A DNA stretch of 64,000 bases from a virus. Its lineage: Duplodnaviria > Caudoviricetes. A program made the translations under genes and the position numbers. Below are positions 37,789 through 54,942 of the stretch, piece by piece. The notes under the pieces are model-generated. The model did no database searches and had not been told where the DNA came from. It saw only the letters and a list, made by a program, of their open reading frames with translations. The stretch lies in the IMG/VR virus record IMGVR_UViG_3300032266_000589, one strand, 5' to 3'. Numbering within the stretch: the first letter of the stretch is position 1; each line of letters starts with the position of its first letter.

Positions 37789-38574
37789 TTATTCCTGTAC
37801 AGTGTCTGGGGTTAAAAACGGTTGATCAACCAGCCCGTCCTCATACTTATGGAACGCGCTTAAGCGTTCCTTCTCTTTTAACATCGCCATCTTCATTTTC
37901 TCCATCTCAATTCCGTACTGCTTCATAGTCTCTGGATCTTGCATCATATTAGCCACCCACGAAATGAAACTCTGTTTACTATCTTCTAATCGTTTAATTC
38001 TTTGTTCTCGCGTACCCTTCATCTCGCGCAACATACTAGCTTTCTTAGTTTGAAGCTCGCGGTAGTCACGGTTAAGACTTTCTTGTGAAGCCCGCAGGGA
38101 AGCTATCTGTCTTTCTAAGTTAATAATATAATCTAGGTCTTGATCGTCTTTATCTTTAGATCTCTCATCTTTGACCATAGTCTCGTAGGTAGAGATCTGT
38201 TGAATATTATCTTTATTACCTTTAAGACACCTATTCATCAATAGTTCCAACTTGATAACGTCTATAACTTGCAACTCTTCTGTTGGAAAAACATCATCTT
38301 TAAACTGGGCGATAATGCGGCTCCAGTGATATTTAAACAATTCTAATTCGTCATGTGTGAATTGAGATTGTAGCTCTATCCAGTACGGGCGATCTTCAAG
38401 AGAGAAAGCAGCTTCTTCTTCCAATGAAAGTCCGTGCTTAAGCTTCCTCTTCATGAATTGTTCAACAGAATCCACATCCCGGTCTAGAGATTTAGCTATA
38501 TCCTCTAGGGTCATAGACTCGGCGTTGCGAGATATAAATCTCTCTTCTTCTTTTGAAATTCGCCCCTTACGCAT
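37789..38574 (-). CDS. Hypothetical protein with N-terminal HTH-like and coiled-coil regions (possible small terminase)
   Basis: EEERFI......MTLEDIAKSLDR HTH-like segment; upstream in the packaging operon. Confidence 0.55.
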   Translation of the reverse strand: MRKGRISKEEERFISRNAESMTLEDIAKSLDRDVDSVEQFMKRKLKHGLSLEEEAAFSLEDRPYWIELQSQFTHDELELFKYHWSRIIAQFKDDVFPTEELQVIDVIKLELLMNRCLKGNKDNIQQISTYETMVKDERSKDKDDQDLDYIINLERQIASLRASQESLNRDYRELQTKKASMLREMKGTREQRIKRLEDSKQSFISWVANMMQDPETMKQYGIEMEKMKMAMLKEKERLSAFHKYEDGLVDQPFLTPDTVQE

Positions 38575-39094
38575 GGCCGTGGTCTTTCATTATATTCTTG
38601 ATAAGTGAGATAATTTCAGCTTTACGTTTCTTTGGTACGTAAACATCACTGAGTATTTTTAAATAGTCTGAGCGGCATTTTGACGGGAGGTGTTGATCTA
38701 TAATCTTATTCATGTGCGACACATCTATATTTATATCTACGTTGTGGTCTTCAGACTCAAGACAGTCATCATAAGATAATTGTGAGGGGTTTAGTACTTT
38801 TTTCTTCTCTGTATCGTTTTTGTTAAAATAGTTGTCGCGGACGAAATTCTTGAGGCGATTAGATAGATTGACTGATAAGAAATTTTCAAGGGGGCGATTT
38901 TCGTCATAACGATCAAGGGCGTCCATGCATATAATATAAGCCTCTTGCTTTATATCATCAACGTCATAACCGTTGAAGGTATACTTGGGGGCAATACGGT
39001 CTACTACTAATAATATCTTTTGCATTACTTCTTTTTCTGACATATTTTTTGGTATCTTCATTCGTCTTCGAATCTCCATAATAATGTTCGCCAA
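38567..39094 (-). CDS. Sigma70-family region-2 protein (likely start ATG 39061)
   Basis: DVDDIKQEAYI..MDAL.RYD..RPL.NFL...L.NRL.NF.RD matches sigma region 2; a canonical region 4 is not evident. Confidence 0.7.
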   Translation of the reverse strand: MANIIMEIRRRMKIPKNMSEKEVMQKILLVVDRIAPKYTFNGYDVDDIKQEAYIICMDALDRYDENRPLENFLSVNLSNRLKNFVRDNYFNKNDTEKKKVLNPSQLSYDDCLESEDHNVDINIDVSHMNKIIDQHLPSKCRSDYLKILSDVYVPKKRKAEIISLIKNIMKDHGHA

Positions 39095-40147: not shown

Positions 40148-40225
40148 TAAGTCCTTGCGTATCAACAACTTAGAACATATACAGTGGCCCAAATTCGTTG
40201 TAAGTCCAATGATATCAACCACTTA
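40148..40225. repeat. Paired-palindrome element copy 1
   Basis: TAAGT-N15-ACTTA, 28 bp, TAAGT-N15-ACTTA. Confidence 0.85.
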
Positions 40226-40254
40226 TAACAAATCCAAAAAAAATCTAGAAATAT

Positions 40255-40295
40255 CTGAAGATTTCTCTTGACAATGCCGATATATACTGTATAAT
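40255..40295 (+). promoter_or_regulatory. Overlapping sigma70 (TTGACA-16-TATAAT) and sigma28-like (CTGAAG-15-GCCGATAT) promoter
   Basis: Both consensus pairs are read directly; the pattern recurs about 16 times in 40-60 kb. Confidence 0.8.
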
Positions 40296-40893
40296 GGTGG
40301 TATAAGAGAACGATAGAGAAAAGGATAAGAAAATGGAAACGATTAAGATTACGCAAAACACTTCAGCAGTTGTCAACAATGGAAAGGTGATCTACTTGAT
40401 TCAGAATGGAATCAAGACTCAAGACCCTCTCAAGGTAAGATATTTTCAGAGAATGATCTAAGCCTCTTGACACCATCCAGCCGATACTATAATGTAAAGA
40501 GAAGAACTGGATACACTAACTAAGAGAAAAAACATGTTCTCAAAAATTGAATATGCTATGGTGTGGGTAATGGGTGCTTTCCTAACTGTTATGGAAACTC
40601 TGTGTGAGGTATGGCAGCGTTTTAAGGAATATGATGAGATGAGAGCAAGGGGCTATACTCTCATGAAGAATGATAAAGGGGATGATTTCTGGGTAGGATA
40701 CGGTGATTAACAATAAGAGGTGCAAGGATGTACAGCGTAGACTTCGTAAGTGTGACTCTTGGATATATCGTAGGTGTAGCATTGTGCTATACCACCATGA
40801 AAATGATCTATGAATTAGAAAGCCATAACAATGACGAATGAACAGATGTATATCATGTGGGGCTTCTCATTCTTTCTTGGTTGCCTTGCGACG

Positions 40894-40971
40894 TATCTCC
40901 TTACTGCATAAGGGTTTACGACGCGGGCGGCGGGCCACGTTTGATGTAAGTCTTTATATAGCAACACTTTA
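40894..40971. repeat. Paired-palindrome element copy 2
   Basis: TATCT-N15-GTTTA, 28-bp G-rich spacer, TAAGT-N15-CTTTA. Confidence 0.85.
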
Positions 40972-40985
40972 CGTTCACTGACTTA

Positions 40986-41000
40986 GCAAACGGTGTGCCA
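40986..41000 (-). promoter_or_regulatory. sigma54 -24/-12 site TGGCACACCGTTTGC
   Basis: Exact TGGCAC-N5-TTGC on the minus strand, 14 bp from box B. Confidence 0.7.
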
Positions 41001-41131
41001 ATAGGGAGGAAAATCGTGATTTCTTTTGTCAAAATCTCTTGACACAAAAATCTCTAGATTGTGCTTGCAAGTTCAAGAATCTCTGGTATAATGTCGATAT
41101 AAGAGTAAGACAGAAAGAAAGAGAAAAGAAA

Positions 41132-41446
41132 ATGAAAAACAAGTTCCCCATCGTCGAAAAAGCCAAGCGTCAAGCCCGTATGTGTTTCCTTGGAATCGCC
41201 ATTCCCACCGCTGTCAAGAGCATCGATGGTGAAATGGTTCAGGTCGAAAAGGTAATCAAGTTCAATCGTACTGCCCTGAAGAACATGGGCAAGAGTAAGA
41301 CCGATAGTGTCGATCCGCGATACGTTGGCGGTGAAGATAAGATGCGGTTCAAGGTTGGAAAGCCGGGAAGTGCTGAACGTGTTGAAGCACTTATCGCACA
41401 GTATGCTAGTCTCTCTGAAGAAGAAATGTCACCCTTTGAGGATTGA
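41132..41446 (+). CDS. Hypothetical early protein
   Basis: 104 aa from ATG 41132 after a promoter; PGS.ER...L..QY motif. Confidence 0.75.
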   Translation: MKNKFPIVEKAKRQARMCFLGIAIPTAVKSIDGEMVQVEKVIKFNRTALKNMGKSKTDSVDPRYVGGEDKMRFKVGKPGSAERVEALIAQYASLSEEEMSPFED

Positions 41447-41637
41447 AAGATGGATACGTTAACATTAAAAGAAGTTGTAAAGATGGCCCGTGAGAATGAT
41501 TTGCATATTCTTATCAAGTCTGAGGGATATGCGTTGTGTGATGATAGTTTCAAAACGCTATTAATCACAAACAGTCTGCGTAACATGGTGTGGTATATTA
41601 ACAACTGCGAAATTCTTGGAATCATAAAGGTATAAAC

Positions 41638-41877
41638 ATGAGCAAGTACAACGGCTGTGCAAACTATCAAACTTGGAATATAAAGCTGTGGATCGCTAAT
41701 GATGAGGGGCTTTATAACTTTGCAAAAGGTTGTGATGATTATGCAGAATTTGTTCAAGGTATGAGAGAAGATGGATATTTTGAAACTGCGGATAATGTAG
41801 CGTGGAATGATAGCGGGATCGACCTTGACGAAATGAAAGAATTTTGGGACGATAATTTTTCTGAAGTTGAGGCTTGA
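41638..41877 (+). CDS. Hypothetical acidic protein
   Basis: YNG.ANY.TWN..LWI.NDEGLY conserved-looking phage motif. Confidence 0.75.
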   Translation: MSKYNGCANYQTWNIKLWIANDEGLYNFAKGCDDYAEFVQGMREDGYFETADNVAWNDSGIDLDEMKEFWDDNFSEVEA

Positions 41878-41942
41878 CAAGTGCCGATAAGTATGGTAGA
41901 CTGTTGTAAGTGTTTTTCAATTAGCAAAAGAGGTGTTTAAGT

Positions 41943-42332
41943 ATGAGTGATTATGTTGTGTTGTGTGCTGTTGTGTTCTTTCTGTTTTGCACGATGATCT
42001 ATTGTGTGTATCGCGGAGTGTACGGTTCGCTATCTTCAGCGAATCTTGGTGAAGTTTACAACTTTCACTATCTCCAGCCTCTCACGGGAGAGTACGAGCG
42101 TTATCTTGCCAAGGTAATCTCAAAGCGTGATATGAAAGAGCAGATTGGATATCTGAATGCTACGAGTAATTATCGTAGATATGATAGCCAGTTTGAGCGT
42201 AGTAACACGCTGGTAACTTGCGAATTGTCAAACGGTGAAATTCGTAACTTTTACGCTGAACGTGTGAGAGATTGCTACCGTTCGATTTTCGGTAGACTAT
42301 TGTACAGTACGGGCATGGCCTGTATGTTCTAA
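41943..42332 (+). CDS. Membrane-anchored WYL/SH3-like protein
   Basis: N-terminal hydrophobic helix; F.Y....GE.ER...V...GEIRNFY.ERV resembles WYL. Confidence 0.55.
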   Translation: MSDYVVLCAVVFFLFCTMIYCVYRGVYGSLSSANLGEVYNFHYLQPLTGEYERYLAKVISKRDMKEQIGYLNATSNYRRYDSQFERSNTLVTCELSNGEIRNFYAERVRDCYRSIFGRLLYSTGMACMF

Positions 42333-42351
42333 GAACGTGCGACACTCGCTC

Positions 42352-42429
42352 TAAGTCTATATCCCACAAGGACTTAGGGCGAATCGCCGCCGCCCCGCGA
42401 AGCGTAAGTCCTTTGCTGGCATACACTTA
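42352..42429. repeat. Paired-palindrome element copy 3 (spacer inverted)
   Basis: TAAGT-N15-ACTTA twice; C-rich 28-bp spacer. Confidence 0.88.
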
Positions 42430-42443
42430 CGTCAAGTCACGAC

Positions 42444-42458
42444 GCAAAAGCTGTGCCA
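42444..42458 (-). promoter_or_regulatory. sigma54 -24/-12 site TGGCACAGCTTTTGC
   Basis: Exact consensus, 14 bp from box B. Confidence 0.7.
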
Positions 42459-42747
42459 CAAATATTTTGAAAATTCTCTGAAGATTTTGCTTGACACGGG
42501 CCGATATATATTGTAGAATGAATTACACAAGGAGAAAAGAGATGACGATTGAAGAAATGAATTACCGTATCGTGAGCCTTCGGATGGACATGGATAACTA
42601 TCGTGCGGCTCGTCAGTTTGGAAAAGTTTCTGAGTTGCGTTTGGAAATCGCCCGCATTGAGGGCGTGATCCGCGAAAAAAATAATCTCAAGTAGGGCTTG
42701 ACAACGGTCGATCTAAGGTATAGAATTCATCACACAAGGAGAAACCC

Positions 42748-42918
42748 ATGAGCTACGATTTTGCGAACGATCTTCTGAACGATCTGGCCGCGTTGGGCAT
42801 TGTTTCCGATCCGATGGTCGAGCCGATTGACGATCCCTCTTACAATGTAGATTTTTGGGATTGGGCGGATGTGGTGGGCGTTGTTGACGAATTCATTCCA
42901 GAGGAGTATACTGTGTAA
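42748..42918 (+). CDS. Small acidic protein (56 aa)
   Basis: AAGGAG SD after a promoter; MSYDFANDLLNDL...DEFIPEEYTV, hand-translated. Confidence 0.65.
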   Translation: MSYDFANDLLNDLAALGIVSDPMVEPIDDPSYNVDFWDWADVVGVVDEFIPEEYTV

Positions 42919-42983
42919 TATGGCGTTCATTCTAATTTGCATTTTCTTTCTTTACCTTACCTGCACACTTGAGGACTAATAAC

Positions 42984-43235
42984 ATGAGCCACCCTGACCC
43001 GTTGTTCGATGCCGATAACTCTTACGAGGATGATGACATGGAAATCCATGATGATACTGCTGATGCTCTCTATGACGATTATCACGATTACCATGACGAT
43101 AGTATGGATGGTGATCATGATTCCGCGATGACTTCCTGCGGATGGGGAACGGATGAGGATTATGGACACTTTTGCGACGATGAGGCTTACGGTTTTTATG
43201 GTGATGATTACGACTATATTGGAGATAACTTTTGA
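42984..43235 (+). CDS. Extremely Asp-rich small protein
   Basis: GAGGA SD; DGDHDSA..SCGWGTDEDYG motif. Confidence 0.75.
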   Translation: MSHPDPLFDADNSYEDDDMEIHDDTADALYDDYHDYHDDSMDGDHDSAMTSCGWGTDEDYGHFCDDEAYGFYGDDYDYIGDNF

Positions 43236-43396
43236 CTGAAGAAGAAAAGCGTATTGAAGAATATAACAAATTCATGGATGAGTGGGCAAAGCGTCCAACT
43301 AATCGTGAGTTGTATGGTAACGGATGTTATCGTCCAGATGAAGTAGCGTTGACTGATGAAGAATATGAAATGTTTGGTTAATACAAAGGAAATAAT

Positions 43397-43624
43397 ATGA
43401 AACTTGGATATCAAAAGTTTGTAGAGTTTGATAACGGTTATTCCGCGAGCATTGTATCTAATGATATGAGCTACGGTAGTGATCGTGGACTATTTGAGAT
43501 TGCTATCCTGCATGGTAGTGAGATCGTATACGATACGGATATTGCTCACGGTGTAGTCGGCTTTCTTGATTTTCAAGATGTAGCAGACACACTCAAGAAA
43601 ATTGAGCAACTTCCGAAACGTTAG
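43397..43624 (+). CDS. Hypothetical protein
   Basis: F.NGY.AS.V....SYG...GLFEIA.L phage motif; AAGGA SD. Confidence 0.8.
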   Translation: MKLGYQKFVEFDNGYSASIVSNDMSYGSDRGLFEIAILHGSEIVYDTDIAHGVVGFLDFQDVADTLKKIEQLPKR

Positions 43625-43627
43625 ACG

Positions 43628-43705
43628 TAAACCCTTGTGAGATAAGGACTTACGACGCGGCGGGCGGGGAAAATTTGTCATAAGTCGTTTACTACCATAT
43701 ACTTA
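43628..43705. repeat. Paired-palindrome element copy 4
   Basis: TAAAC-N15-ACTTA, 28 bp, TAAGT-N15-ACTTA. Confidence 0.88.
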
Positions 43706-43853
43706 CGACGAGTTTTTGTCTAAAGAAAGTGCTTGACAGGTGACGATAACTATGGTACACTAGGTGTAGGAGGATAGAATATGGATGATAGAGAATATAT
43801 ACAACCTGAACAAGATACGATAGACTTTCTGGTTTACGCGGAATATATAAACT

Positions 43854-43952
43854 GGCAACTTAGGCAGATTGGGCAAGATGTGAGAAATGAGATAGATGGG
43901 ATGAGTGCGTAAGATAGGTAATCTAGGTAAGATGGGCAAGCTGGGGAAGTCT
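43854..43952 (+). repeat. Degenerate 9-bp tandem array (11 units, approximately GGYAAKMTR)
   Basis: ggcaactta ggcagattg ggcaagatg ... ggtaatcta ggtaagatg ggcaagctg. Confidence 0.7.
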
Positions 43953-44179
43953 CTGCCTATCTAAGCGGGTCATGTGTTTTTCGCCATAGTCAGCCAAAAG
44001 GAGATTTTATGAAGAATGTGCATGTTTATGATATTAAGACTGAGGATGGTCAATCGTTGATGGATTTGATTATTCCTGTGGATATTGATGCAACGTGGAT
44101 GGATGTGTTTGAGAAGGTTCAGGGAGCATATCTTGACAACGTAGACAGCTATAGCTATACTGAGGTGTAGCCAACAATC

Positions 44180-44252
44180 GGGGGTGTAACTTAGCGACTA
44201 AAGTAGCGGTCTTTTAAACCGTTTATCGTGGGTTTGAGTCCCACCGCCCCCA
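44180..44252 (+). tRNA. tRNA-Lys(TTT)
   Basis: Full cloverleaf; anticodon loop CTTTTAA; D-loop has GA and the T-loop is TTTGAGT. Confidence 0.9.
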
Positions 44253-44304
44253 TTTCGTGTATAATAGAGTAGATGATCACTAACCTTCTACTCTAGGAGT
44301 AATT

Positions 44305-44715
44305 ATGCACAGTAAGAGAAAAGGAAATATAGGCCAATTCGCGGTTGGTCTAGCTTTAACTAAACTTGGATATTCTGTATTCACTGAAGAGGGAGATATA
44401 TCTAAGATAGATATTATAGCTGAGAAGGATGGTAAACTATTAAGGTTTCAGTCTAAAGCTATAACGCCAACAGATAACAAGCTACAGCTACATTTAAAAA
44501 AGAGTGGCCCAAACTATAAATTCACTTATCAGCAAGGAGTATTTGATTACTTTGCTATATACGATTTAGAGGATGGGAATATCTATCTAGTTCCAGATTC
44601 AGTATTGTCAGAAAATAGCCATACTTTTAGTTTGAGAAAAATTCAATCAAAGAATAATCAAACGTCTGGTGTGCATATGGCATCGGACTACTTGATAGAA
44701 AAAATGCTATCTTGA
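44305..44715 (+). CDS. PD-(D/E)xK endonuclease (I-Ssp6803I-like homing endonuclease type)
   Basis: K.KG.IG...V...L...GY.VF......KIDII....G...R.QSK...Y....FDYFA.Y. Confidence 0.8.
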   Translation: MHSKRKGNIGQFAVGLALTKLGYSVFTEEGDISKIDIIAEKDGKLLRFQSKAITPTDNKLQLHLKKSGPNYKFTYQQGVFDYFAIYDLEDGNIYLVPDSVLSENSHTFSLRKIQSKNNQTSGVHMASDYLIEKMLS

Positions 44716-44784
44716 CATTCATAAGGATTGTGAGTATAATATGAGGATGAGGCGTATCCACAAATATCAACTAAGGAGTGATTT

Positions 44785-45039
44785 ATGTCATGGAGAGATG
44801 AGTTCTTCTTCTATAAGGGCTACAATTGTAGAATCGAACATGATTATGAGGAAGATAATGTTAAAGCATGGCATATTGTCGTTGATCAATCTGGTAAAGA
44901 AACTACTGCGGATATAACCCCATATGATAGTTCTCCTGAAGTGGTACGTTTGTGGATTGATGCTGGTATGCCTAAACGTATTGGTAGTGGCCCACTACGC
45001 AGAGAAGATTTGGAGAAGATGATCTATGAGCGAGCCTAA
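44785..45039 (+). CDS. Hypothetical protein
   Basis: TAAGGAG SD after a TTGACA/TATAAT promoter. Confidence 0.75.
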   Translation: MSWRDEFFFYKGYNCRIEHDYEEDNVKAWHIVVDQSGKETTADITPYDSSPEVVRLWIDAGMPKRIGSGPLRREDLEKMIYERA

Positions 45040-45181
45040 TGTCTATTATATCTATAACGAATATGTATTGGGCGACGTAGATTATTATGAGGATATCTAT
45101 GAAGAAATTATTGAGTATGATGACTCTGATGAGTGGTACAATATTGACGAAGCGGAGGCTGATGTTTGAGCGACGATGGAT

Positions 45182-45253
45182 GCCGACATAGCTCAATGGT
45201 AGAGCCACTGATTTGTAATCAGTAGGTTACAGGTTCAAGTCCTGTTGTCGGCT
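45182..45253 (+). tRNA. tRNA-Thr(TGT)
   Basis: Canonical cloverleaf, anticodon loop TTTGTAA. Confidence 0.93.
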
Positions 45254-45254
45254 C

Positions 45255-45325
45255 TCCGGGATGGTGAAACGGTATCACAAAGGATTTTGGTTCCTTTTTT
45301 CTACGTTCGAATCGTAGTCCCGGAA
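45255..45325 (+). tRNA. tRNA-Gln(TTG)
   Basis: TCCGGGA/TCCCGGA acceptor stem, anticodon loop TTTTGGT. Confidence 0.92.
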
Positions 45326-45329
45326 CTAT

Positions 45330-45401
45330 ACATAGGTAGCATAATGGTAATGCCCCAAACTGTTAATTTGTCAGATGTAGGTTCGACTCCTACCCTATGT
45401 G
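45330..45401 (+). tRNA. tRNA-Asn(GTT)
   Basis: ACATAGG/CCTATGT acceptor stem, anticodon loop CTGTTAA. Confidence 0.88.
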
Positions 45402-45405
45402 TTTT

Positions 45406-45478
45406 GGCCCTATCGTCTAGTGGACTAGGACACCACCCTTTCACGGTGGATACTGGAGTTCGAATCTCCATAGGGTCA
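45406..45478 (+). tRNA. tRNA-Glu(TTC)
   Basis: Canonical cloverleaf, anticodon loop CTTTCAC. Confidence 0.93.
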
Positions 45479-45556
45479 TAACTCTATATCTGACAAGTGT
45501 TTAGGACATGCGGGGCGGGCCGCGTTTTTCATAAGTCCTTATCTACCAACACTTTA
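45479..45556. repeat. Paired-palindrome element copy 5
   Basis: TAACT-N15-GTTTA, 28 bp, TAAGT-N15-CTTTA; abuts tRNA-Glu. Confidence 0.85.
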
Positions 45557-45571
45557 CGACAAATTTCTCTA

Positions 45572-45586
45572 GCAAATACCATGCCA
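45572..45586 (-). promoter_or_regulatory. sigma54 -24/-12 site TGGCATGGTATTTGC
   Basis: TGGCAT-N5-TTGC, 15 bp from box B. Confidence 0.65.
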
Positions 45587-45659
45587 GAGATTTTTCTAAA
45601 GATTTCTCTTGACGTTGACGATCTATATGGTATGATGAGTAGACACAAGGGAGACAATT

Positions 45660-46373
45660 ATGCAATTCAGTAAGGGTAACGAGAAGTTGGGTGACGGGTG
45701 CTTGGTTGTGAGTCGTGCTGTGGGCGATACTTGCCCATCATCGTGCGATTTCTTGGGTAACGGCTGTTATGCTGAGAACACTGAGAATATCTTTAAGAAT
45801 AGCCGAGCGGTTGGATTGCGGAATATGATTACAGAGAAGAATCTTATTCGTGCTATGATCGTGGAAGCTATTAAGAAAGAAGTTGCTATCCGTTGGCATG
45901 AACGGGGCGATTTCTTTAAGAATGGTGAACTAGACTGCGAATATGTTGACAATATCGTATGGGCTTGTGAGAGTCTATTGTCTGAGGGTAAAGAATTGCC
46001 AGAGATGTGGGTCTACTCTCATATCTATGATAGTCGTATTGTAAATCAACTTTCTAAGTATATGGTGGTATATGCTAGCGTACACAATAGCGATCATAAA
46101 GAAGCAGCAAGCAACGCCGGTTTCAAATACTTCGCATGGTGCGACACGGATAATGTCTATAGTCCAAAGAAGCCAAGAGGCAAGGCAAAAGTCGAAGCAT
46201 GGCGAAAAGCCTTGCCGAAACTAGCTATCATCGACAACGAGCGGTATATCACTTGCCCCGAGATGCGGCGTGGTCGTCAGGCTGGTGGTGTCACTTGCAC
46301 TGGCACGAAAGATAGTGTAGAATGTAATCTGTGCGTCAAGGGTTTGGCTAATGTTTTGTTTCTCAACCACTAA
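45660..46373 (+). CDS. Gp88-like (radical-SAM-like) protein
   Basis: N.KLG, TCP..C......CYA, IRWHE.GDF, CP.....C..C.LC motifs. Confidence 0.75.
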   Translation: MQFSKGNEKLGDGCLVVSRAVGDTCPSSCDFLGNGCYAENTENIFKNSRAVGLRNMITEKNLIRAMIVEAIKKEVAIRWHERGDFFKNGELDCEYVDNIVWACESLLSEGKELPEMWVYSHIYDSRIVNQLSKYMVVYASVHNSDHKEAASNAGFKYFAWCDTDNVYSPKKPRGKAKVEAWRKALPKLAIIDNERYITCPEMRRGRQAGGVTCTGTKDSVECNLCVKGLANVLFLNH

Positions 46374-46382
46374 GGATGTAAT

Positions 46383-46928
46383 ATGACGATTGTTGGAAGT
46401 TATGAAAACTCTGGAAGCCGTTCAGCTTTCTATGTTATTGATAGTAAGCGTGGATTCAAAGAGTTTGGTGATAAGAGTGAGGCTGAATATGCTCACGCTG
46501 TTCAATCTAAACTGGAAAATTGTGATATGGCCCCATATGTTATGAGTCAAGTGGGCAAGATTCGTATGAGTAATGGCAATTTGTCTGATTGGGGATATAT
46601 TACAGAGATTGCACAGATGATTGGTTGTGGTGGTAATGAGTGTAGTTGTGGCGAGTGTGATGAAGATTACTATTTCATGTATAACGATAAGATTCAAGAC
46701 TTGACAGACAATATGCTACGCATTCTTGGTGTCGAGTTTATGGATAATCATATCGGCAATGTGGGATTCATTCGTCGCAATCGTAAGAAAGTCTTAGTGT
46801 GCATTGACTTTGGCAGTGAGAGTGTGTACGATGAAGATTGTGTAGTTGACCCGCGTGATGATGAAGAATATGAGTGTAACTGCATAGTTTGTCAACAATG
46901 TCAACAACAAAGGGAATTCCATGAGTAA
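46383..46928 (+). CDS. Protein-kinase-like (APH/STK fold) protein
   Basis: G.K.F, D.H.GNVG catalytic loop, IDFG. Confidence 0.7.
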   Translation: MTIVGSYENSGSRSAFYVIDSKRGFKEFGDKSEAEYAHAVQSKLENCDMAPYVMSQVGKIRMSNGNLSDWGYITEIAQMIGCGGNECSCGECDEDYYFMYNDKIQDLTDNMLRILGVEFMDNHIGNVGFIRRNRKKVLVCIDFGSESVYDEDCVVDPRDDEEYECNCIVCQQCQQQREFHE

Positions 46929-47151
46929 GTATTATATTCAATGTGGAAGTCTACAACTTATTTTCAGCACTAGTAAATCAGAGAGTGAAGCGGCGGCACA
47001 AGTATTGTGGGAAAGTAACGAGCATGATGTATTAGATGAATATTTTTATGTAGATGAGCGTGGATATCGTGATTATACTAATGCAGATAAACACACCCAA
47101 GTTATTCCTACGGAAGTTGTAATGAAATTAGCAGATTGGGAAATAGAATGA
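46921..47151 (+). CDS. Hypothetical protein
   Basis: Coupled ORF, M.KYY.Q.G.L...V.ERG motif. Confidence 0.7.
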   Translation: MSKYYIQCGSLQLIFSTSKSESEAAAQVLWESNEHDVLDEYFYVDERGYRDYTNADKHTQVIPTEVVMKLADWEIE

Positions 47152-47153
47152 CG

Positions 47154-47231
47154 TAAACCCTTGCTACCATTAGACTTATGGCGGGCGGGGCCGGGGCGAT
47201 TTGACGTAAACCCTTATCAATTAAAGACTTA
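47154..47231. repeat. Paired-palindrome element copy 6
   Basis: TAAAC-N15-ACTTA twice; 28-bp G-rich spacer. Confidence 0.88.
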
Positions 47232-47319
47232 GAACAAATTTTGAGAAAGCCTAAAGTCCTATCCGTAGAGTGTCGATAAGTAGTGTATGGACAGGAAGTG
47301 TGTAAAAAGGAGTGGAGAG

Positions 47320-47682
47320 ATGATTCAGTGGGTTGGGATACTGATTACCATAGTGGGCTTGGCATATACGGGACTTAAAGATTACCAAAAAGGTGATATT
47401 AAATTTCCCCAAATGCCACAGAAAACGGCCTTGACAAAGGTAATTTATCCGGTACAATATTGTTTAATGGCTTACGATCCAAACGTCGATAAAGTCTTTT
47501 ACCTACATGAGAATGGAATATGGCATGACTATGCACCACAACAACGAAGATATGAGGCCACGCCGCAACGTGGTCAAGCTCAAGGTCAAGAAGCCGTGGG
47601 AAGTTCCTACGGGACACAGAGAACATCGGGATACGGTTATGGACAATCGGCCCAAGCGTCAACGAACACGCAAAGATATTGA
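47320..47682 (+). CDS. Putative membrane-anchored protein
   Basis: GGAG SD and N-terminal hydrophobic helix. Confidence 0.6.
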   Translation: MIQWVGILITIVGLAYTGLKDYQKGDIKFPQMPQKTALTKVIYPVQYCLMAYDPNVDKVFYLHENGIWHDYAPQQRRYEATPQRGQAQGQEAVGSSYGTQRTSGYGYGQSAQASTNTQRY

Positions 47683-47842
47683 AAAGGGGTGGCGAAATGA
47701 GTACAATATGTAGTGAGTGTGGCAGCAGCAACATAGGATACGATGCTTGGGTTGATAAGGATGGCAATGTAGTTGGTGGGCCATACGACAATTCCATGTG
47801 TATGGATTGTTCATCATCGAACGTAACACAGAAAGAAATATA

Positions 47843-48172
47843 ATGCCATATATTGATGAAACAAGTCGTAAGGTATTAGATGGGGCCATAGATGATCTGG
47901 CTAACATCATTACTAACTTTTCAGAATTAGATAATGAAGATGTAATGGTTGTGCTGGGTGATTTGAATTACTGTATGAGTAGATTGATTGGTCAAGTGAT
48001 GGGCAATACTTCATATGCGAAGGTTGCTATGCTCACGGGCGTACTTGAGAATGTAAAGCAAGAATTCTATCGTCGTGTGGCAGTACCTTACGAAGAAGAA
48101 AAGATTGTTCAGAACGGCGACATCAAAGAATACAAAAATCGACACTTGACAGGAAAGAATCGCACGATATAA
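47843..48172 (+). CDS. Hypothetical protein (MPYI...G.LNY...EFYRR..VPYE..K...NGD family)
   Basis: Motif common in phage ORFs. Confidence 0.8.
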   Translation: MPYIDETSRKVLDGAIDDLANIITNFSELDNEDVMVVLGDLNYCMSRLIGQVMGNTSYAKVAMLTGVLENVKQEFYRRVAVPYEEEKIVQNGDIKEYKNRHLTGKNRTI

Positions 48173-48181
48173 TAGAGAAAC

Positions 48182-48264
48182 AAGCAGATGAGGGCCGCTG
48201 GCAGAATGATATCAAAGTAGCCACGGTTAAATGGCTGTCGAGTATGGCTCAACCCTATCTGCTT
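48182..48264 (+). ncRNA. Candidate structured RNA 1
   Basis: Begins at the predicted TSS of TTGACA(48146)/TATAAT(48168); closing stem AAGCAGAT-g-AGGG/CCCT-ATCTGCTT; internal stem GTAGCCA/TGGCTGT. Confidence 0.5.
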
Positions 48265-48277
48265 TATAATACAAACT

Positions 48278-48415
48278 ACGTGGGTCCATGCCTTGGACTA
48301 GGTTGGGTAACTCATTACGATAAGCCCCGCATGTCGCGGCAGCGATGGGGCTGACAGTGCCGGTTACGCACTGGATAGTAATGCCAATCTATGGGGGATC
48401 GCGTCCTCACCACGT
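48278..48415 (+). ncRNA. Candidate tRNA-like multi-stem RNA 2
   Basis: Nested stems ACGTGG/CCACGT, GTCCA/TGGAC, TAGGTTGG/CCAATCTA, CATTAC/GTAATG, AGCCCC/GGGGCT, CAGTGC/GCACTG, TGGGG/CCTCA. Confidence 0.65.
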
Positions 48416-48597
48416 TTATAATACAAAGGAGAAGAGATGACTAAAGAAGAAGCGATGGTATTTATTCTTAGGGTTCTTAAAAACCCCATGATGGTTATGA
48501 GTCCCGATAAAACTAAAGCTATGAACCTAGCAGCAGAGCATAACATTAGTGGTATCGATCTGATTAAAGCCTACGAAAATATTGTTATGAGGATATA

Positions 48598-48867
48598 ATG
48601 CAGTGGATTAGTTTCTTTGGTCCTCGCCGCCCTATCAACGGGCAAAAGATTATATACTATGGCGAGCCTATTGGTGTGTGGCGTGGGAATTACGTTATAG
48701 ATCGTAAAGACCCACACTGTGAACATCTTATTATATGTAGTGAGGCTATGGGTGTCGTAGATCGTATGGATGCCCCGTGGTGGATGCCAGATGAGGGGCA
48801 AGAGAAACCCTCTAAGCCATCAGAAGATTATCCAAAAGATTATCCAGCCCTTGACAAACTAAACTAA
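48598..48867 (+). CDS. Hypothetical protein
   Basis: 89 aa with a GAGGA SD. Confidence 0.7.
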   Translation: MQWISFFGPRRPINGQKIIYYGEPIGVWRGNYVIDRKDPHCEHLIICSEAMGVVDRMDAPWWMPDEGQEKPSKPSEDYPKDYPALDKLN

Positions 48868-48884
48868 GCCTGTATAATAGGGAC

Positions 48885-49298
48885 ATGAAACCAAAACCAT
48901 TACATGCTGAAGTTCGATTCCATCTTGCTAGTGGTAAAAACTATATGCACTGGCAAGTCAAGGTTATGCAGGGCAGGAAAAAGGTTGATGTCTATTATTA
49001 CGATCCTGCTGACTATCAACTAGAGATGATTAACTGCAAGCTGGTTAACAAGGTAAATAAGGCTAAGAAGGTTAACAAGGCTGGTAAGAAAGATGTGGCA
49101 GGGTGGGTAAAGTGTGACGAAGTTATTCTTACCAAAGAATCTTCTGTTGACAATCTTGAGAAGTTGTATTATAATCCTATCCGTGACGTTCATTGGCGAC
49201 GAGATAGTGATGGTGGTGAGTTCGCTTGGGACGATAGTGAATACTCTACGCTAATTACCAATAACAAACAAGTTTATATCTTAGAGGAAAGAACATGA
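48885..49298 (+). CDS. Hypothetical protein
   Basis: VRFHL..G.NYM.WQVK motif; follows a promoter. Confidence 0.75.
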   Translation: MKPKPLHAEVRFHLASGKNYMHWQVKVMQGRKKVDVYYYDPADYQLEMINCKLVNKVNKAKKVNKAGKKDVAGWVKCDEVILTKESSVDNLEKLYYNPIRDVHWRRDSDGGEFAWDDSEYSTLITNNKQVYILEERT

Positions 49299-49678
49299 TT
49301 AACGTTGAAATGACAGTTCGTGAGGCTCTGAATCTGGTGTCCAACGGTGTGCATATGGACATGTACGAGCGTATCGTTCAAGCTTTGGAGGCGAAGTGTG
49401 GCGAACTCAAGGCTATTATGACCGTGCGTTACGTTCCACGCGATAGCTTCATTCCCTGTATCAAGATCATTCGTAATCATCTTGGTTGGGGTCTGAAGGA
49501 AACTAAAGACTTCCTTGATGTGGTGCGTGGTGGTTGGGATAGTTTTGAAAATGACTATGTTGATGGTAAGCCTAACTCCCTTACTAACGACAGTGATGTG
49601 ATCATCAAGATTGCGTCTGAACTTCGTTCTCAGGGGTGTACGGTGGATATCAAAGATGCTGAACGTAAACCCTTATAG
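49295..49678 (+). CDS. Ribosomal protein bL12 C-terminal-like domain protein
   Basis: IPCIKIIRNHLGWGLKETKDFLD resembles the bL12 motif I.VIK.VR..TGLGLKEAK.LV. Confidence 0.65.
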   Translation: MINVEMTVREALNLVSNGVHMDMYERIVQALEAKCGELKAIMTVRYVPRDSFIPCIKIIRNHLGWGLKETKDFLDVVRGGWDSFENDYVDGKPNSLTNDSDVIIKIASELRSQGCTVDIKDAERKPL

Positions 49679-49743
49679 GATATAGACTTACATCAAACGT
49701 GGCCGCCCCGGCTCGTCGTAAGTCCTTTGATACCAACGACTTA
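49666..49743. repeat. Paired-palindrome element copy 7 (spacer inverted)
   Basis: TAAAC-N15-ACTTA, 28 bp, TAAGT-N15-ACTTA. Confidence 0.88.
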
Positions 49744-49850
49744 TGACCAATCCAAAAAAATTTTTCAAGTTAGCTATTGACTCTGGACGATACTATGGTA
49801 GAATGATTGAAGTTACGGGATTGATAACCACTAAAGAAAAGAGGAATGAT

Positions 49851-50096
49851 ATGAATAAGTATACGTTTGTTCTGGATGTTGTGACCGATGGTTCGCTGGA
49901 TACGGATTCGATTGCCCAGACGTTGATTGCCAACGTGGAGAATGAGGGTGTGTACGCGGCTGTCAAGCCCGTCAAGGTGTCTGCTCTGAAGGAGCAGGGA
50001 TTCAAGGTGTGGCGAGCTAGGGTCGCGGGAATCACTGAGGCTTCGCTTCAGCCTGAGAAGGTGGAAGCGGAAGTCGCCGTGGCTTCGGCCTCTTGA
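49851..50096 (+). CDS. Hypothetical early protein
   Basis: GAGGA SD; GC-rich codon usage. Confidence 0.7.
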   Translation: MNKYTFVLDVVTDGSLDTDSIAQTLIANVENEGVYAAVKPVKVSALKEQGFKVWRARVAGITEASLQPEKVEAEVAVASAS

Positions 50097-50183
50097 TTTT
50101 CTAAAGAGTATCGGCTAGAATGTCGATACTAGGTGAAGCCCAAGTAACCTAGTATCGACTCTAGCAACACTAAGGAGATAACA

Positions 50184-50540
50184 ATGGGTTTGGATCAGTT
50201 CGCATACGCTGTTGATAAAGATAATAACAAGACTGAACTGGCATATTGGAGAAAGCATCCTAATCTTCAAGGCTGGATGGAAAACCTGTGGAATTCCAAG
50301 GGTTGTCCCGACGCCAACGAAAACGGTGCTGAATTCAATTGTGTGCCGGTCAAGCTAACTAAGGAAGACTTGGATAGTTTGGAGCAGGCTCTTAATTCTA
50401 ATAGCTTGCCCGCGACTGCCGGTTTCTTCTTTGGTAGTAATAGTGACGATACTTATCGGCAGCAGGACGTAGAGTTTATTGCGGTCGCCCGCAAGGCTCT
50501 TGACAGTGGACTATCTGTAGTGTATGATAGCTGGTGGTGA
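50184..50540 (+). CDS. Hypothetical protein (MGLD...YWRK.....GW...GFFFG...Y.SWW family)
   Basis: Widespread phage motif; TAAGGAG SD. Confidence 0.85.
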   Translation: MGLDQFAYAVDKDNNKTELAYWRKHPNLQGWMENLWNSKGCPDANENGAEFNCVPVKLTKEDLDSLEQALNSNSLPATAGFFFGSNSDDTYRQQDVEFIAVARKALDSGLSVVYDSWW

Positions 50541-50711
50541 TTTAACAAAGGGAGAAGACGATGACAAAGATTCTGGGTATTGGTACTGTCACGCCCAAGG
50601 GTACTGTGACGGCTATCAAGCGTGACGGTGTGGTGATTGTTGATAATGGCGCGAAGGTTGTGTTGACCTTTGCTCAAGTTGAAAAGATGATGAGTGTCTA
50701 ACTAAGGGAGA

Positions 50712-50936
50712 TTGATTATGACTATGAATGTTTTTACTAACTTTTCGCTGGCTACTGGTAAGCACCTCGTTTGCAAGTATCCCAAGCATGGCCGTCTGAA
50801 TGTGCTGAAGTTCCACAAGGGTACTGTTGAGCATCTTGGCTTTGGTCCGCACGGGCCGTATGCTAAGATTCGCAGCGAGGATAACACTATCCGTACCCTG
50901 CGATGCGACCGCATGGTTGATCCTGTCTGTTCGTGA
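50712..50936 (+). CDS. Small SH3/WYL-like protein
   Basis: GP.GPY..I......IRTLR.DRM. Confidence 0.6.
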   Translation: MIMTMNVFTNFSLATGKHLVCKYPKHGRLNVLKFHKGTVEHLGFGPHGPYAKIRSEDNTIRTLRCDRMVDPVCS

Positions 50937-50990
50937 TCTCTCCCTTGACAGGAGCGGGAACCCTATGTTACAATTGGGTTCCCGCTTCAT

Positions 50991-51066
50991 GGGGCGTAAG
51001 GTAAGCCGGTTGCATCCGACACTCTTATAAGGTGTTCATAGGTACGTTCGACTCGTACACGCCCTA
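50991..51066 (+). tRNA. tRNA-Ile(TAT)
   Basis: GGGGCGT/ACGCCCT acceptor stem, anticodon loop CTTATAA, T-arm GTACG-TTCGACT-CGTAC. Confidence 0.82.
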
Positions 51067-51537
51067 CTGTGATTTGTTGTCACTGCTAGGGAGATAAATT
51101 GATAGAACTTATGATTATGATTATTGTGTGGTCAATGCTATATCAAGATAAATAAATAGTGGATAATAACTTTCTAGTAAAGTAATCAATATCCTCTCAA
51201 TCATCAAGGGCAAACTATATGAAGATTGTAACATTAAGTGTAGAGTTGGCATTTGAGAATGTTCACGAAGGCATAGACTTCAATGATAAAGAGTCAATAG
51301 CTGAGTATTTAAATAATGCACTATATGAATCCCCAGAGTTCTTTGGTGATTTCGGGCCTGAGAATATAATAGATGTAAAGGATATAGATGATTGATCTAA
51401 CTACCAACGAAATGTGGAAGATCCTAGACGCTATAACAGCATACAAAAAAGATTATGCAGTAAGTGAGACAGTACAGAAAACTATATCTGGTATAGAGAA
51501 AAAGTTGAAAGTTGAATTGAAAAAGTAAAACTCGCCG

Positions 51538-51615
51538 TAAGTCCTTTGCCCACAAGGGTTTAGGACGAACGCGGCCCGCCCCGCGAGTCGTAAGTCCTTA
51601 CGCAGCAACCACTTA
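51538..51615. repeat. Paired-palindrome element copy 8 (spacer inverted)
   Basis: TAAGT-N15-GTTTA, 28 bp, TAAGT-N15-ACTTA. Confidence 0.88.
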
Positions 51616-51692
51616 CGTCAAAAAATTATTTCTAATGCTGACCCCTTGACATTGACGATACGTATGGTATCATTAGCGAAAAGGAGAGAACG

Positions 51693-51914
51693 ATGGTTGC
51701 GATAAATGAGGATATGGCCGATACTGTGATGGCAGCACGTTGCAAAATGTGTGCCGCCAATCATGTGATTTTCGTGAAGATGCACGATTATATCGAATGG
51801 AAGAATGGTGCGGGTTTTATTCAAGACCTTATGCCCTACCTTTCGGAAGCGGATCGTGAGCTTTTGATTAGTGGCACTTGTGGCCCATGTTTTGATTCAA
51901 TGTTTCCCTCTTGA
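51693..51914 (+). CDS. Small Zn-finger protein
   Basis: CxxC...IQD..P.LS...RE.LISG.CxxC. Confidence 0.8.
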   Translation: MVAINEDMADTVMAARCKMCAANHVIFVKMHDYIEWKNGAGFIQDLMPYLSEADRELLISGTCGPCFDSMFPS

Positions 51915-51971
51915 CAAGCCGATAACGTATAGTATACTGTTGACACGTAGTTTGATTTCCCACTAGGAGTT

Positions 51972-53177
51972 TTGAAGATGAGCGATTATAACAAGTTGAC
52001 GATTGATTCCAATGCTTCCGCCGGTTCGTTCGTGCGTACCCTGCAAGGCAACACCGGTACGGGTTTCGCGGAAGGCACCCATGTCCACAAAGATTGGTGG
52101 GCGAAGACCAAGACCTTTGAACAGGTCAAGCAGGACACGCAGACTGCTATTGATAACCGTGAGGATGTTCTCACTGAAATCAAGAACATTTTCTGCACCA
52201 ATGAAGGTGACGATTTTTACTTCAAGCTGGCAGACGGTCGCAAGTTTCGCCCGACTGACCATGCTCTTGAGCAGTTCAGCACCCGCGTAGGCGTTACGTC
52301 CTCGTCGTTCCTGCGTGAGATGCGTAATATCGAAGGGTTCGATGGTAACGATAGCAACACGATGGCTATCGTTGGCAACAATGCCATGCGTCGAATCGAT
52401 CCCGATAAGAAGTTTCGTCTGCGTACCTATACGGATGGAACGTGTCGTGCGTTCGTGACTGAGCAGTATGCTCCGGTCGATAACCGCTGGTATCTTGATG
52501 TGCTTGGCGAGTTCATTCCCGGTGGACGGTTCAGCCACTGGCGTGGAGATGAGGATACCATCTATGGTAACGTTCTCATCCCCGATACCATCATGGACTA
52601 CGGTTCAGACGATAGTGACTACGGTGGCATGATCAGCGTGGGTAACTGTGAGATCGGCACTCGCCGCATTACGCAAACGCCCAGCCTGTTTCGTGCCATC
52701 TGCATGAATGGCTGCATCTGGGGTCAGACTTCCGGTGAGAAGATTCGTCGCGTTCATCGTGGCAATATCGACCTCGCCGCTCTGAAACTGGAAATTGCCA
52801 AGAATATTCAGGATCAGATTCCGCTCCTCGCTCCGGGTATCAAGAAGTTCTTGGCAACCCGTAGTATGGAAATCGGTAAGGCTTCTGCCAAAGGTATCAT
52901 CGCCAGCGTTTCGTCAGATTACAAACTGTCAAAGCGTGAGGCTACTGAGTTCCTTGAGCAGTATGTCACGATGGAAGCACAGAATAGTAGCCTGTTTGGT
53001 ATCATCAACGGTCTGACCCGTGCTGGTCAGAAGTTTGATAATAAGACATGGGTGAAGTTCGATGAGGTTGCTGGTAATCTGCTGGACATTTCAGCGGATC
53101 GCTGGAACACCATCCTGCGTCGTGCGGATACGTTCAACGATAAGGATTACGAAAAGGTTTTCGCCCTTACGGCTTGA
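51972..53177 (+). CDS. DUF932/DUF945-like protein
   Basis: T.HA..Q....G, RA..T..Y...DN, G...GN.E.G, P.LFR..C.NG.I, H.G, S.FG..NG.TR..Q. Confidence 0.8.
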   Translation: MKMSDYNKLTIDSNASAGSFVRTLQGNTGTGFAEGTHVHKDWWAKTKTFEQVKQDTQTAIDNREDVLTEIKNIFCTNEGDDFYFKLADGRKFRPTDHALEQFSTRVGVTSSSFLREMRNIEGFDGNDSNTMAIVGNNAMRRIDPDKKFRLRTYTDGTCRAFVTEQYAPVDNRWYLDVLGEFIPGGRFSHWRGDEDTIYGNVLIPDTIMDYGSDDSDYGGMISVGNCEIGTRRITQTPSLFRAICMNGCIWGQTSGEKIRRVHRGNIDLAALKLEIAKNIQDQIPLLAPGIKKFLATRSMEIGKASAKGIIASVSSDYKLSKREATEFLEQYVTMEAQNSSLFGIINGLTRAGQKFDNKTWVKFDEVAGNLLDISADRWNTILRRADTFNDKDYEKVFALTA

Positions 53178-53275
53178 TTCTAGTGGGAGGGGAAAGGGGC
53201 TGGCGGGCCATTATCAATAAATTATCCTGCCAGTTCCCTACCCTTCCAACAAACTTGGGAAGCTGAGACTCGCCA

Positions 53276-53403
53276 TAAGTCCGTTGCCCATAAGGGTTTA
53301 CGGCGGGCGGGGGCGGCGAAATTTGATATAAATACTTATCCCATAAGGGTTTACATCAAGTCTAATAGCAAGTGAACGTAAGTCGTTTGTTCTCAAGTAC
53401 TTG
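53276..53403. repeat. Paired-palindrome element copy 9 plus a third box
   Basis: Boxes 53276-53300 and 53329-53353 are 28 bp apart; an extra box lies at 53379-53403. Confidence 0.85.
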
Positions 53404-53453
53404 CGTCAAGAGTGTCGATATGGTATGATGGAGAGTGGAATGATTGGAATGTG

Positions 53454-53551
53454 GGTAATATAGATAACACAGGTAATCTAGGCTACATGTTAAAATAGGT
53501 AGTCTGGGTAATCTGGGATGTCTAGGTAAGCTAGGCAAGTGGGGTTGTCTC
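53454..53551 (+). repeat. Degenerate 9-bp tandem array (about 11 units)
   Basis: ggtaatata gataacaca ggtaatcta ... ggtagtctg ggtaatctg ggatgtcta ggtaagcta ggcaagtgg. Confidence 0.7.
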
Positions 53552-54086: not shown

Positions 54087-54515
54087 ATGAAATTGAAGCG
54101 TGGACAAAAGCTTTGTAAGAACTGTAATAATATCAATGGCGCACGGGCGCATACATGTAAGCATTGTAATAGTGAGTTTGTGTCTGCATCTATAACTAAG
54201 AAGAATAAGTTTAAAACCAAGCGCCCCAAGAAATATGAAGAGATTGATTGGAAAGATCTATCGACCGGGGATACTATTAAAGTTATAGGACGGTCTGGTA
54301 ATTACTATGTTAATAGCATGGGCGAACGTATGTATATGAGTGATGCTGGAATATATACAGTACGTAGTAAAGATACTAATGGACTGATAGTTTATAGTTC
54401 AGACGGCGGTTACGGGTATATCTATATGGGACCAGAAATTCAATCTGATCTCATGGATAATATGTATCGTAGCCCACATAAGATCGTAAAGGTCAATTTA
54501 CCTGTTCGAACATGA
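54087..54515 (+). CDS. Zn-ribbon protein
   Basis: G.K.CxxC...NG.R...CxxC N-terminus. Confidence 0.8.
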   Translation: MKLKRGQKLCKNCNNINGARAHTCKHCNSEFVSASITKKNKFKTKRPKKYEEIDWKDLSTGDTIKVIGRSGNYYVNSMGERMYMSDAGIYTVRSKDTNGLIVYSSDGGYGYIYMGPEIQSDLMDNMYRSPHKIVKVNLPVRT

Positions 54516-54880: not shown

Positions 54881-54909
54881 TCTACCATACATATACTATA
54901 TACAGAACG

Positions 54910-54942
54910 GCCCCGTGGTTCCTATGGACTATGGGGCTTTTC
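54910..54942 (+). terminator. Putative intrinsic terminator
   Basis: GCCCC..TCC-TAT-GGA..GGGGC followed by TTTT. Confidence 0.55.

Follow-up and report, generated by a model that had tools for sequence, protein, structure and literature searches.

A repeated 78-bp twin-dyad element as a candidate phased operator of early promoters in a family of uncultured phages

The early region and its repeated element

We analyzed a stretch of 64,000 nt from the IMG/VR record IMGVR_UViG_3300032266_000589, which belongs to an uncultured tailed phage, and refer to this whole stretch as the window. Its subject here is an element of 78 bp that occurs nine times in a region of 13 kb. Late and structural genes are read leftward up to approximately 39.8 kb. 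From 40.2 kb onward, approximately 19 strong sigma70-type promoters were found, all on the plus strand, together with six tRNAs and small genes that mostly have no assigned function. No convincing intrinsic terminator was found in the 13-kb region, and the first strong one lies at 54909-54938. Each copy of the element consists of a 25-bp dyad box (box A), a 28-bp spacer, and another 25-bp box (box B), with zero indels. A first-pass annotation of the sequence had reported nine copies of invariant length, confined to this region, and all nine were present where it had placed them (Table 1). A profile made from the nine copies scored every one of them with E values from 1e-14 to 1e-21, and scanning both strands of the 64 kb revealed no further element. 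A third box, following copy 9, ends at 53403, which accounts for the end coordinate given in the annotation.

The consensus of the boxes was TAAGTCCTT-N7-AAGGACTTA, in agreement with the ideal box proposed in the annotation; its TAA and TTA ends were invariant and were flanked by CG. The N7 centers had been described as differing from copy to copy. They did so in all nine pairs of the window, and 310 distinct 7-mers were counted among 518 boxes across the relatives described below. The spacer is made up of 7-8 bp, a GC-rich core of approximately 12-14 bp, and another 7-8 bp. On the plus strand, this core was G-rich in copies 2, 4, 5, 6, and 9 and C-rich in copies 3, 7, and 8. The positions of the copies relative to genes and promoters were only partly as the annotation had them. 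Copies 2-8 had been placed within about 20 bp of the preceding 3' end, which is correct for copies 3-8, beginning anywhere from a 13-bp overlap with the preceding open reading frame (ORF) or tRNA to 20 bp beyond its end, and incorrect for copy 2, at approximately 53 bp. Every copy had been placed just upstream of a promoter; this was the case for seven copies (27-93 bp), while copy 6 is followed by a weak -35 and copy 9 is linked to its promoter through the third box.

Several neighbors of the elements deserve mention. The gene for a 401-amino-acid (aa) protein is present in all relatives and is always flanked by two elements. A block of four tRNAs stops exactly at the start of copy 5, and in relatives another tRNA is found there. 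A tRNA-Lys gene is followed by a gene for a PD-(D/E)XK endonuclease. Beside the early region, on the strand of the late genes, lies the gene for a 175-aa protein with a sigma70 region 2, which is probably a phage sigma factor for later genes.

Table 1. Coordinates of the elements, promoters, sigma54-type motifs, and neighboring genes in the window
Feature	Position	Strand	Remark
Copy 1	40148..40225	+	Degenerate GC core
Copy 2	40894..40971	+	~53 bp past nearest plausible ORF
Copy 3	42352..42429	+	Core C-rich on plus strand
Copy 4	43628..43705	+	Begins 4 bp past stop codon of ORF 43397-43624
Copy 5	45479..45556	+	Abuts 3' end of tRNA-Glu
Copy 6	47154..47231	+	Profile match
Copy 7	49666..49743	+	Covers final 13 nt of ORF 49295-49678
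Copy 8	51538..51615	+	Profile match
Copy 9	53276..53353	+	99 bp past end of preceding gene
Third box after copy 9	53379..53403	+	50 bp from box B, start to start; right arm overlaps next -35
Sigma70 promoter after copy 1	40268..40295	+	12/12 consensus; -35 lies 42 bp past box end
Sigma70 promoter after copy 2	41065..41092	+	-35 lies 93 bp past box end
Sigma70 promoter after copy 3	42491..42519	+	61 bp
Sigma70 promoter after copy 4	43733..43761	+	27 bp
Sigma70 promoter after copy 5	45609..45636	+	52 bp; drives 237-aa GP88-like gene
Promoter-like sequence after copy 6			Promoter-like -10 and spacer, weak -35 at the canonical 30 bp; inferred from reading the sequence
Sigma70 promoter after copy 7	49777..49804	+	33 bp
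Sigma70 promoter after copy 8	51646..51673	+	30 bp
Promoter overlapped by third box	53401..53429	+	-35 at 53401-53406, -10 at 53424-53429; leads to conserved 97-, 142-, and 104-aa genes
Sigma54-type motif by copy 2	40985..41000	-	11/11; 14 bp from element end, pointing into element
Sigma54-type motif by copy 3	42443..42458	-	10/11; 14 bp from element end, pointing into element
Sigma54-type motif by copy 5	45571..45586	-	10/11; 15 bp from element end, pointing into element
Near-perfect sigma54-type motif	51741..51756	-	
175-aa protein gene	38567..39094	-	Sigma70 region 2
tRNA-Lys	44180..44252		
PD-(D/E)XK endonuclease gene	44305..44715		
Four-tRNA block	45182..45479		
401-aa protein gene	51972..53177	+	Weak DUF932 match
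142-aa protein gene	54087..54515	+	

The window had no nucleotide match in the cultured-phage collection. Its large terminase was only 26% identical to the counterparts in Bacillus phages Stills and Slash, and a look-up of the phage sugar dehydratase provided no hint of the host. IMG/VR contains more than 600 related terminase loci. The relatives are many uncultured aquatic phages, and the 78-bp element was found with the same geometry in every relative with a readable early region, at conserved syntenic positions. Five complete or near-complete relatives (150-238 kb, CheckV 94-100%) contained approximately 10-20 copies each, in a single early region of 13-19 kb, and no element was found outside this region genome-wide, so the confinement to one region that the annotation claimed for the window applies to these relatives as well. 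The collected set comprised 376 distinct copies of full length, and in 301 of these the four TA/TTA anchors were all exactly in register. The spacing was measured with single boxes that were detected independently by a weight matrix. Neighboring boxes were 53 bp apart in 255 of 267 pairs (range 50-55 bp); nine pairs were spaced at 52 bp, and spacings of 50, 54, and 55 bp were found once each. Thus, the fixed spacing noticed in the window is kept in the relatives. Half-elements, containing one box and the spacer, occur too.

The element was also sought in bacteria. A scan of approximately 186,000 species genomes with the single box gave, among the matches listed, scattered lone matches across many phyla. 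Twin elements were found among these listed matches in one record only, a mis-binned phage contig, and in no bacterial chromosome. A near-complete genome of this phage family, with 10 copies in its first 11.4 kb, is the 141-kb contig RFTN01000003.1 (L179, or G011:C90, in our set), which had been placed in a metagenome bin of a bacterium; the small-genome relatives of that bin were without the element. Four long contigs of relatives (G002, G003, G004, and G011:C90) end within the early region, and population-level microdiversity is the likelier cause of these breaks. The idea that the cluster marks a genome end or a first step of DNA transfer was rejected, since three genomes with direct terminal repeats place it at arbitrary contig positions.

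Promoter register and the form of the signal

Stringent promoters (TTGACN, 16-18 bp, TAnnnT) were sought within 160 bp of each element. Of 350 elements, 216 had such a promoter on a single side, and none had one on both. The distances from the box end to the first base of the -35 were clustered at 19-21, 29-33, 40-43, 51-53, and 61-65 bp, with steps at 20, 30-31, 41-42, 52, and 62-64 bp. The best period of the element-to--35 distance was 10.6 bp, with a Rayleigh p of approximately 1e-38, or approximately 1e-15 without the main peak, both values being inflated by the non-independence of related sequences. The set was de-replicated by removing element-linker-promoter sequences that were at least 75% identical at the same distance, which left 167. 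In this set, the resultant length at 10.6 bp was 0.60, whereas none of the 2,000 jittered controls (shifts of up to 5 bp) exceeded 0.26. Most of the window distances (Table 1) were on or near this ladder. At 10.6 bp per turn, 53 bp corresponds to 5.0 turns; therefore, box A, box B, and the promoter lie in one helical register.

The elements also have a polarity. When copies were oriented by the promoter side alone, the promoter-side half-site was without the GG of the other three half-sites, and column 72 contained C instead of G. The orientation of the GC core relative to the promoter side was not strict (70 G-rich, 36 C-rich, and 39 mixed). The third box that overlaps a -35 is kept in four relatives. 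Besides the hexamers, the early promoters from 40268 to 51673 often share a CGATA-containing spacer motif, a TG before the -10, and a block of approximately 14 nt upstream of the -35. Runs of a 9-bp repeat (approximately GGTAAKMTR) were observed at 43888-43954 and 53443-53544, in the long leaders after the promoters of copies 4 and 9; relatives have other short repeats at the same leader positions and a conserved block of approximately 25 nt before the Shine-Dalgarno sequence of the 97-aa gene.

Palindromes at the 3' ends of genes might also act as RNA by forming two or three hairpins that serve as a terminator, a 3' stabilizer, or a site for RNase III processing, and box A can fold as a 9-bp hairpin in some copies. 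Pairing was evaluated on both strands of 259 copies with mutual identity below 90%. For the hairpins within boxes, the fraction of Watson-Crick and wobble pairs was at or below the column-shuffled expectation (z down to -9). The long hairpin between box A and box B gave z values from -0.2 to -3.7, and pairing in the spacer gave z values of approximately +0.5 to +1.1 versus column shuffling. At box positions 4-5 and 21-22, the combination GT/AC was found 167 times, GT/GT 66 times, and AC/AC 83 times, while the pairing-restoring AC/GT was found in 0 of 316 (Fisher 2e-10). Each box retains at least one canonical arm. The RNA folds of the nine copies differed from copy to copy (z from -0.2 to -4), and an Rfam search of the window returned only tRNAs and no family matching the element. 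Moreover, the rigid length and the promoter register are properties of DNA. An RNA element is thus extremely improbable. Given the absence of compensatory change and the negative co-variation, the selected feature is double-stranded DNA read by a protein, with the binding itself predicted, and not an RNA or DNA hairpin. Because at least one canonical arm is always kept, the box behaves like a dimer operator and not like a helix. RNase III sites of the type in SPO1 and SP82 early mRNA had been the initial candidate and were dropped, with no DNA match to a cultured phage and no pairing signal. In summary, the elements show the general characteristics of a phased upstream transcription-factor site, namely dyads free of any pairing constraint and a separation from the promoter by whole helical turns.

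Alternative explanations

The position of the elements suggests two further functions. A protein bound at the 3' end of a unit might block read-through, as a roadblock terminator or an insulator. Six copies begin at or near the end of an upstream ORF or tRNA, and the 13-kb region contains no canonical intrinsic terminator but is followed by a strong one. Nevertheless, a roadblock needs no promoter register, yet the register is strong; the units are all co-directional, so that read-through would be harmless; and closeness to stop codons is expected anyway in a compact intergenic region made of element, linker, and promoter. We consider a boundary function quite improbable. The elements might instead be sites at which promoter-gene cassettes are excised, inserted, or shuffled in the manner of integrons or tyrosine recombinases, which was one option of the first-pass annotation. 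Whole cassettes do differ between relatives: the closest ones, L001 and L002 (87-96% identity over shared flanks), contain an extra gene-element-promoter unit of 1.7 kb after copy 1. Ends of homology blocks fell at elements 32 times versus 15.9 expected (p 1e-4), an enrichment of only about twofold, and most breakpoints (204 of 236, 86%) lay elsewhere, and the best-resolved seams were at gene starts, past the conserved promoter and leader. No match to PF00589 (tyrosine recombinase) or PF00239 (serine recombinase) was found in the five relatives that are 94-100% complete, although an enzyme of the host is conceivable. Strand exchange requires a matching central region in the partner sites, and the differing centers of all boxes would block it between copies. 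The negative co-variation and invariant length are also unlike the folded-strand signature of attC sites, and the elements keep conserved syntenic positions. Ordinary homologous recombination between repeated intergenic modules explains the seams, and the elements may serve as homology patches for it, as PeSLs do. With no recombinase encoded and all box centers different, there is no case for site-specific shuffling, and we regard it as very improbable.

The other two explanations assign the element to a host regulator. Sigma54-type motifs (TGGCAC-N5-TTGCW, 10-11 of 11 positions matched) were found within 200 bp of 90 of 355 elements in the relatives, at 121 sites versus a rough chance estimate of approximately 2, with preferred offsets of 13-14, 37, and 56 bp from the element. 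Dimers on the twin dyads might nucleate the AAA+ hexamer of a host sigma54 activator that fires adjacent sigma54 promoters, and enhancers of this class typically have paired dyads on the same face of the helix. However, three quarters of the elements, including 6 of the 9 in the window, have no motif, and the motifs of the window are antisense to the genes. In L107 and other relatives, such motifs were found in both orientations, and one relative contained arrays of three motifs whose orientation alternates. At the orthologous intergenic spot upstream of the 237-aa gene, five relatives have the motif in sense orientation and six have it in antisense orientation, as does the window, while approximately ten lack it. 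The sigma54-activator domain PF00158 was not found in the five complete or near-complete relatives, and the phasing of the elements is to the sigma70 -35. The motif behaves, as far as its distribution indicates, as an optional and orientation-free insert of approximately two or more helical turns between element and promoter; a sigma54 role is not the general purpose of the element, and an enhancer of this type is distinctly unlikely. A host IHF-type architectural protein, alternatively, could bend the upstream DNA back onto RNA polymerase and boost the early promoters. Helical phasing fits such a bend-dependent effect, and in 159 of 259 copies the half of box B facing the promoter contains the IHF consensus core, with the full 13-mer in 24 of 259. 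Yet the full consensus is rare, being found in 9% at the promoter-side half-site and in at most 3% (at most 7 of 259) at each of the other three. Furthermore, the strongly conserved box positions exceed what the IHF consensus requires, and, as described above, no bacterial chromosome among the matches listed contains the twin element. We consider this explanation unlikely.

Interpretation and comparison with known systems

Our results point to the element as an operator or activator module that lies upstream of a subset of the early sigma70 promoters, in helical phase with them, and we hold this to be the probable reading, with some reserve. One dimer would bind each box, and two dimers would sit side by side on one face of the DNA across the GC-rich core, which would tolerate either orientation and may hold a third partner. 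The phased complex would contact promoter-bound RNA polymerase, with the alpha C-terminal domain as the probable point of contact. The outcome that we favor is a coordinated shut-off or throttling of the early cassettes, resembling phi29 p4 at the early promoter A2c, because most of the promoters are near consensus and an extra box lies over the -35 at the last copy. The chief alternative is activation, with which the weak -35 of copy 6 would agree. In either case, the elements are more likely to switch early genes jointly, as a set, than to shuffle them. The annotation had proposed sites for two dimers on one DNA face, and this part of its interpretation is upheld by the lack of compensatory change, by the near-invariant 53 bp (5.0 turns), and by the promoter register of the whole unit, whereas the recombinase and cassette-shuffling part is not sustained. 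Its further option of a master switch for host-takeover genes fits the operator module, and its option of handles or decoys for a host DNA-binding protein is conceivable.

Some observations weigh against an operator module. Approximately 10 of the 19 or so strong early promoters in the window are without an element; therefore, the element is not required for promoter function as such. In addition, 134 of 350 elements have no stringent promoter within 160 bp, many of these having a slightly degenerate -35. The p-values for phasing are inflated, as stated above, and whether the effect is repressive or activating is purely a matter of inference. A Pfam search of approximately 40 early ORFs for the binder revealed no recognizable DNA-binding domain, and the 142-aa and 97-aa proteins encoded after copy 9 had no significant match in the PDB by sequence or by fold.

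Since diverged phages share a constant box consensus, the binder seems more likely to be encoded by the phage than by the host. The 142-aa protein, encoded behind the box-overlapped promoter, shares 39-80% identity across relatives and belongs to no Pfam family. Its predicted model (pLDDT 84) contains an N-terminal zinc ribbon with four cysteines, a basic linker, and an SH3-like beta domain, and the model of the 97-aa protein contains a helix and a curved sheet. The complete relatives were found to encode no protein resembling HU or IHF. PF05464 (phi29 p4) gave no match in the relatives; the control genomes were unmatched too, so this search was uninformative. A more far-reaching version of the operator module would have the twin dyad and the GC core nucleate a single phage oligomer that holds host RNA polymerase at approximately 10-20 promoters. 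This would be the master switch of a host-takeover or anti-defense island, with the sigma54-type boxes as non-productive parking sites that capture or disarm sigma54 holoenzyme. We give this version only a small chance.

If the operator module is real, then in these large uncultured aquatic phages, which form a widespread family, a single rigid cis-module and a single factor govern many of the early promoters. Timing classes could then be assigned to early genes without known function, with no need for a cultured host. The invariant spacing of 53 bp and the 10.6-bp distance ladder provide a handle for finding the binding factor. The coupling to sigma54-type motifs in phages without an activator gene is a second puzzle beside the identity of the binder.

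Several known systems resemble the element in part. REP and BIME-1 (RIP) sequences are found at the 3' ends of transcription units. In these mosaics, two inverted palindromic units flank a linker, and binding of IHF and gyrase to them has been reported. The REP units are GC-rich hairpins dispersed over enterobacterial chromosomes. The element shares with them two palindromic units around a linker at 3' ends, but its boxes are AT-rich and without a pairing signal, and it is confined to one phage region, with none in bacterial genomes among the matches listed. The enhancers of NtrC-type sigma54 activators contain paired dyad sites on one helical face, as the element does, and sigma54-type motifs are found near approximately a quarter of the copies. 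In contrast to these enhancers, most copies are motif-free, the orientation is inconsistent, no activator gene is present, and the phasing is to sigma70 promoters.

In CRP-CytR-CRP complexes, the CRP sites are 52-53 bp apart. At E. coli promoters of the deoP2 type, a central site with flexible repeat orientation lies between the two dyads (PMC3454398). The similarity consists of two dyads approximately five turns apart on one face, a central site in either orientation, and the promoter register. Unlike these promoters, where the proximal site of deoP2 overlaps the -35 region, both boxes of our element lie farther upstream; the motifs are unrelated, and a third protein on the GC core is conjectural here. 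PeSLs of T4-type phages are intergenic repeats between small non-essential early genes, containing a stop codon, an AT-rich tract, a strong sigma70 promoter, and a Shine-Dalgarno sequence, and their hallmark is a G/C stem-loop that terminates transcription at a variable position in or near the promoter (PMC2839356). Like them, our elements belong to repeated intergenic modules with a strong sigma70 promoter (216 of 350), whose cassettes are gained and lost between relatives. They differ from PeSLs in showing no pairing signal and in having the rigid form of a 78-bp twin dyad, which lies upstream of the promoter in helical register with it.

The regions bound by phi29 p4 contain two imperfect inverted repeats, with arms flanking a 15-bp center, upstream of promoters for the host polymerase, and from there p4 represses strong early promoters and activates one late promoter (PMC3100819). 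Paired dyads upstream of host-type promoters are common to both systems. Bound p4 dimers act on RNA polymerase from a phased position upstream, and such an action of phased dimers is what we infer here. The sequences, however, are unrelated, and the approximately 10-20 copies per genome, the strict 53 bp, and the GC core distinguish the element from the p4 sites. The annotation had recognized no described element of this architecture, and our search of the literature, which was of incomplete coverage and addressed both the motif itself and phased palindromes located upstream in the early regions of phages, yielded no published description either. Compared with these systems, a phased upstream operator is of a well-known kind, whereas the architecture, the copy number, and the family-wide rigidity are new.

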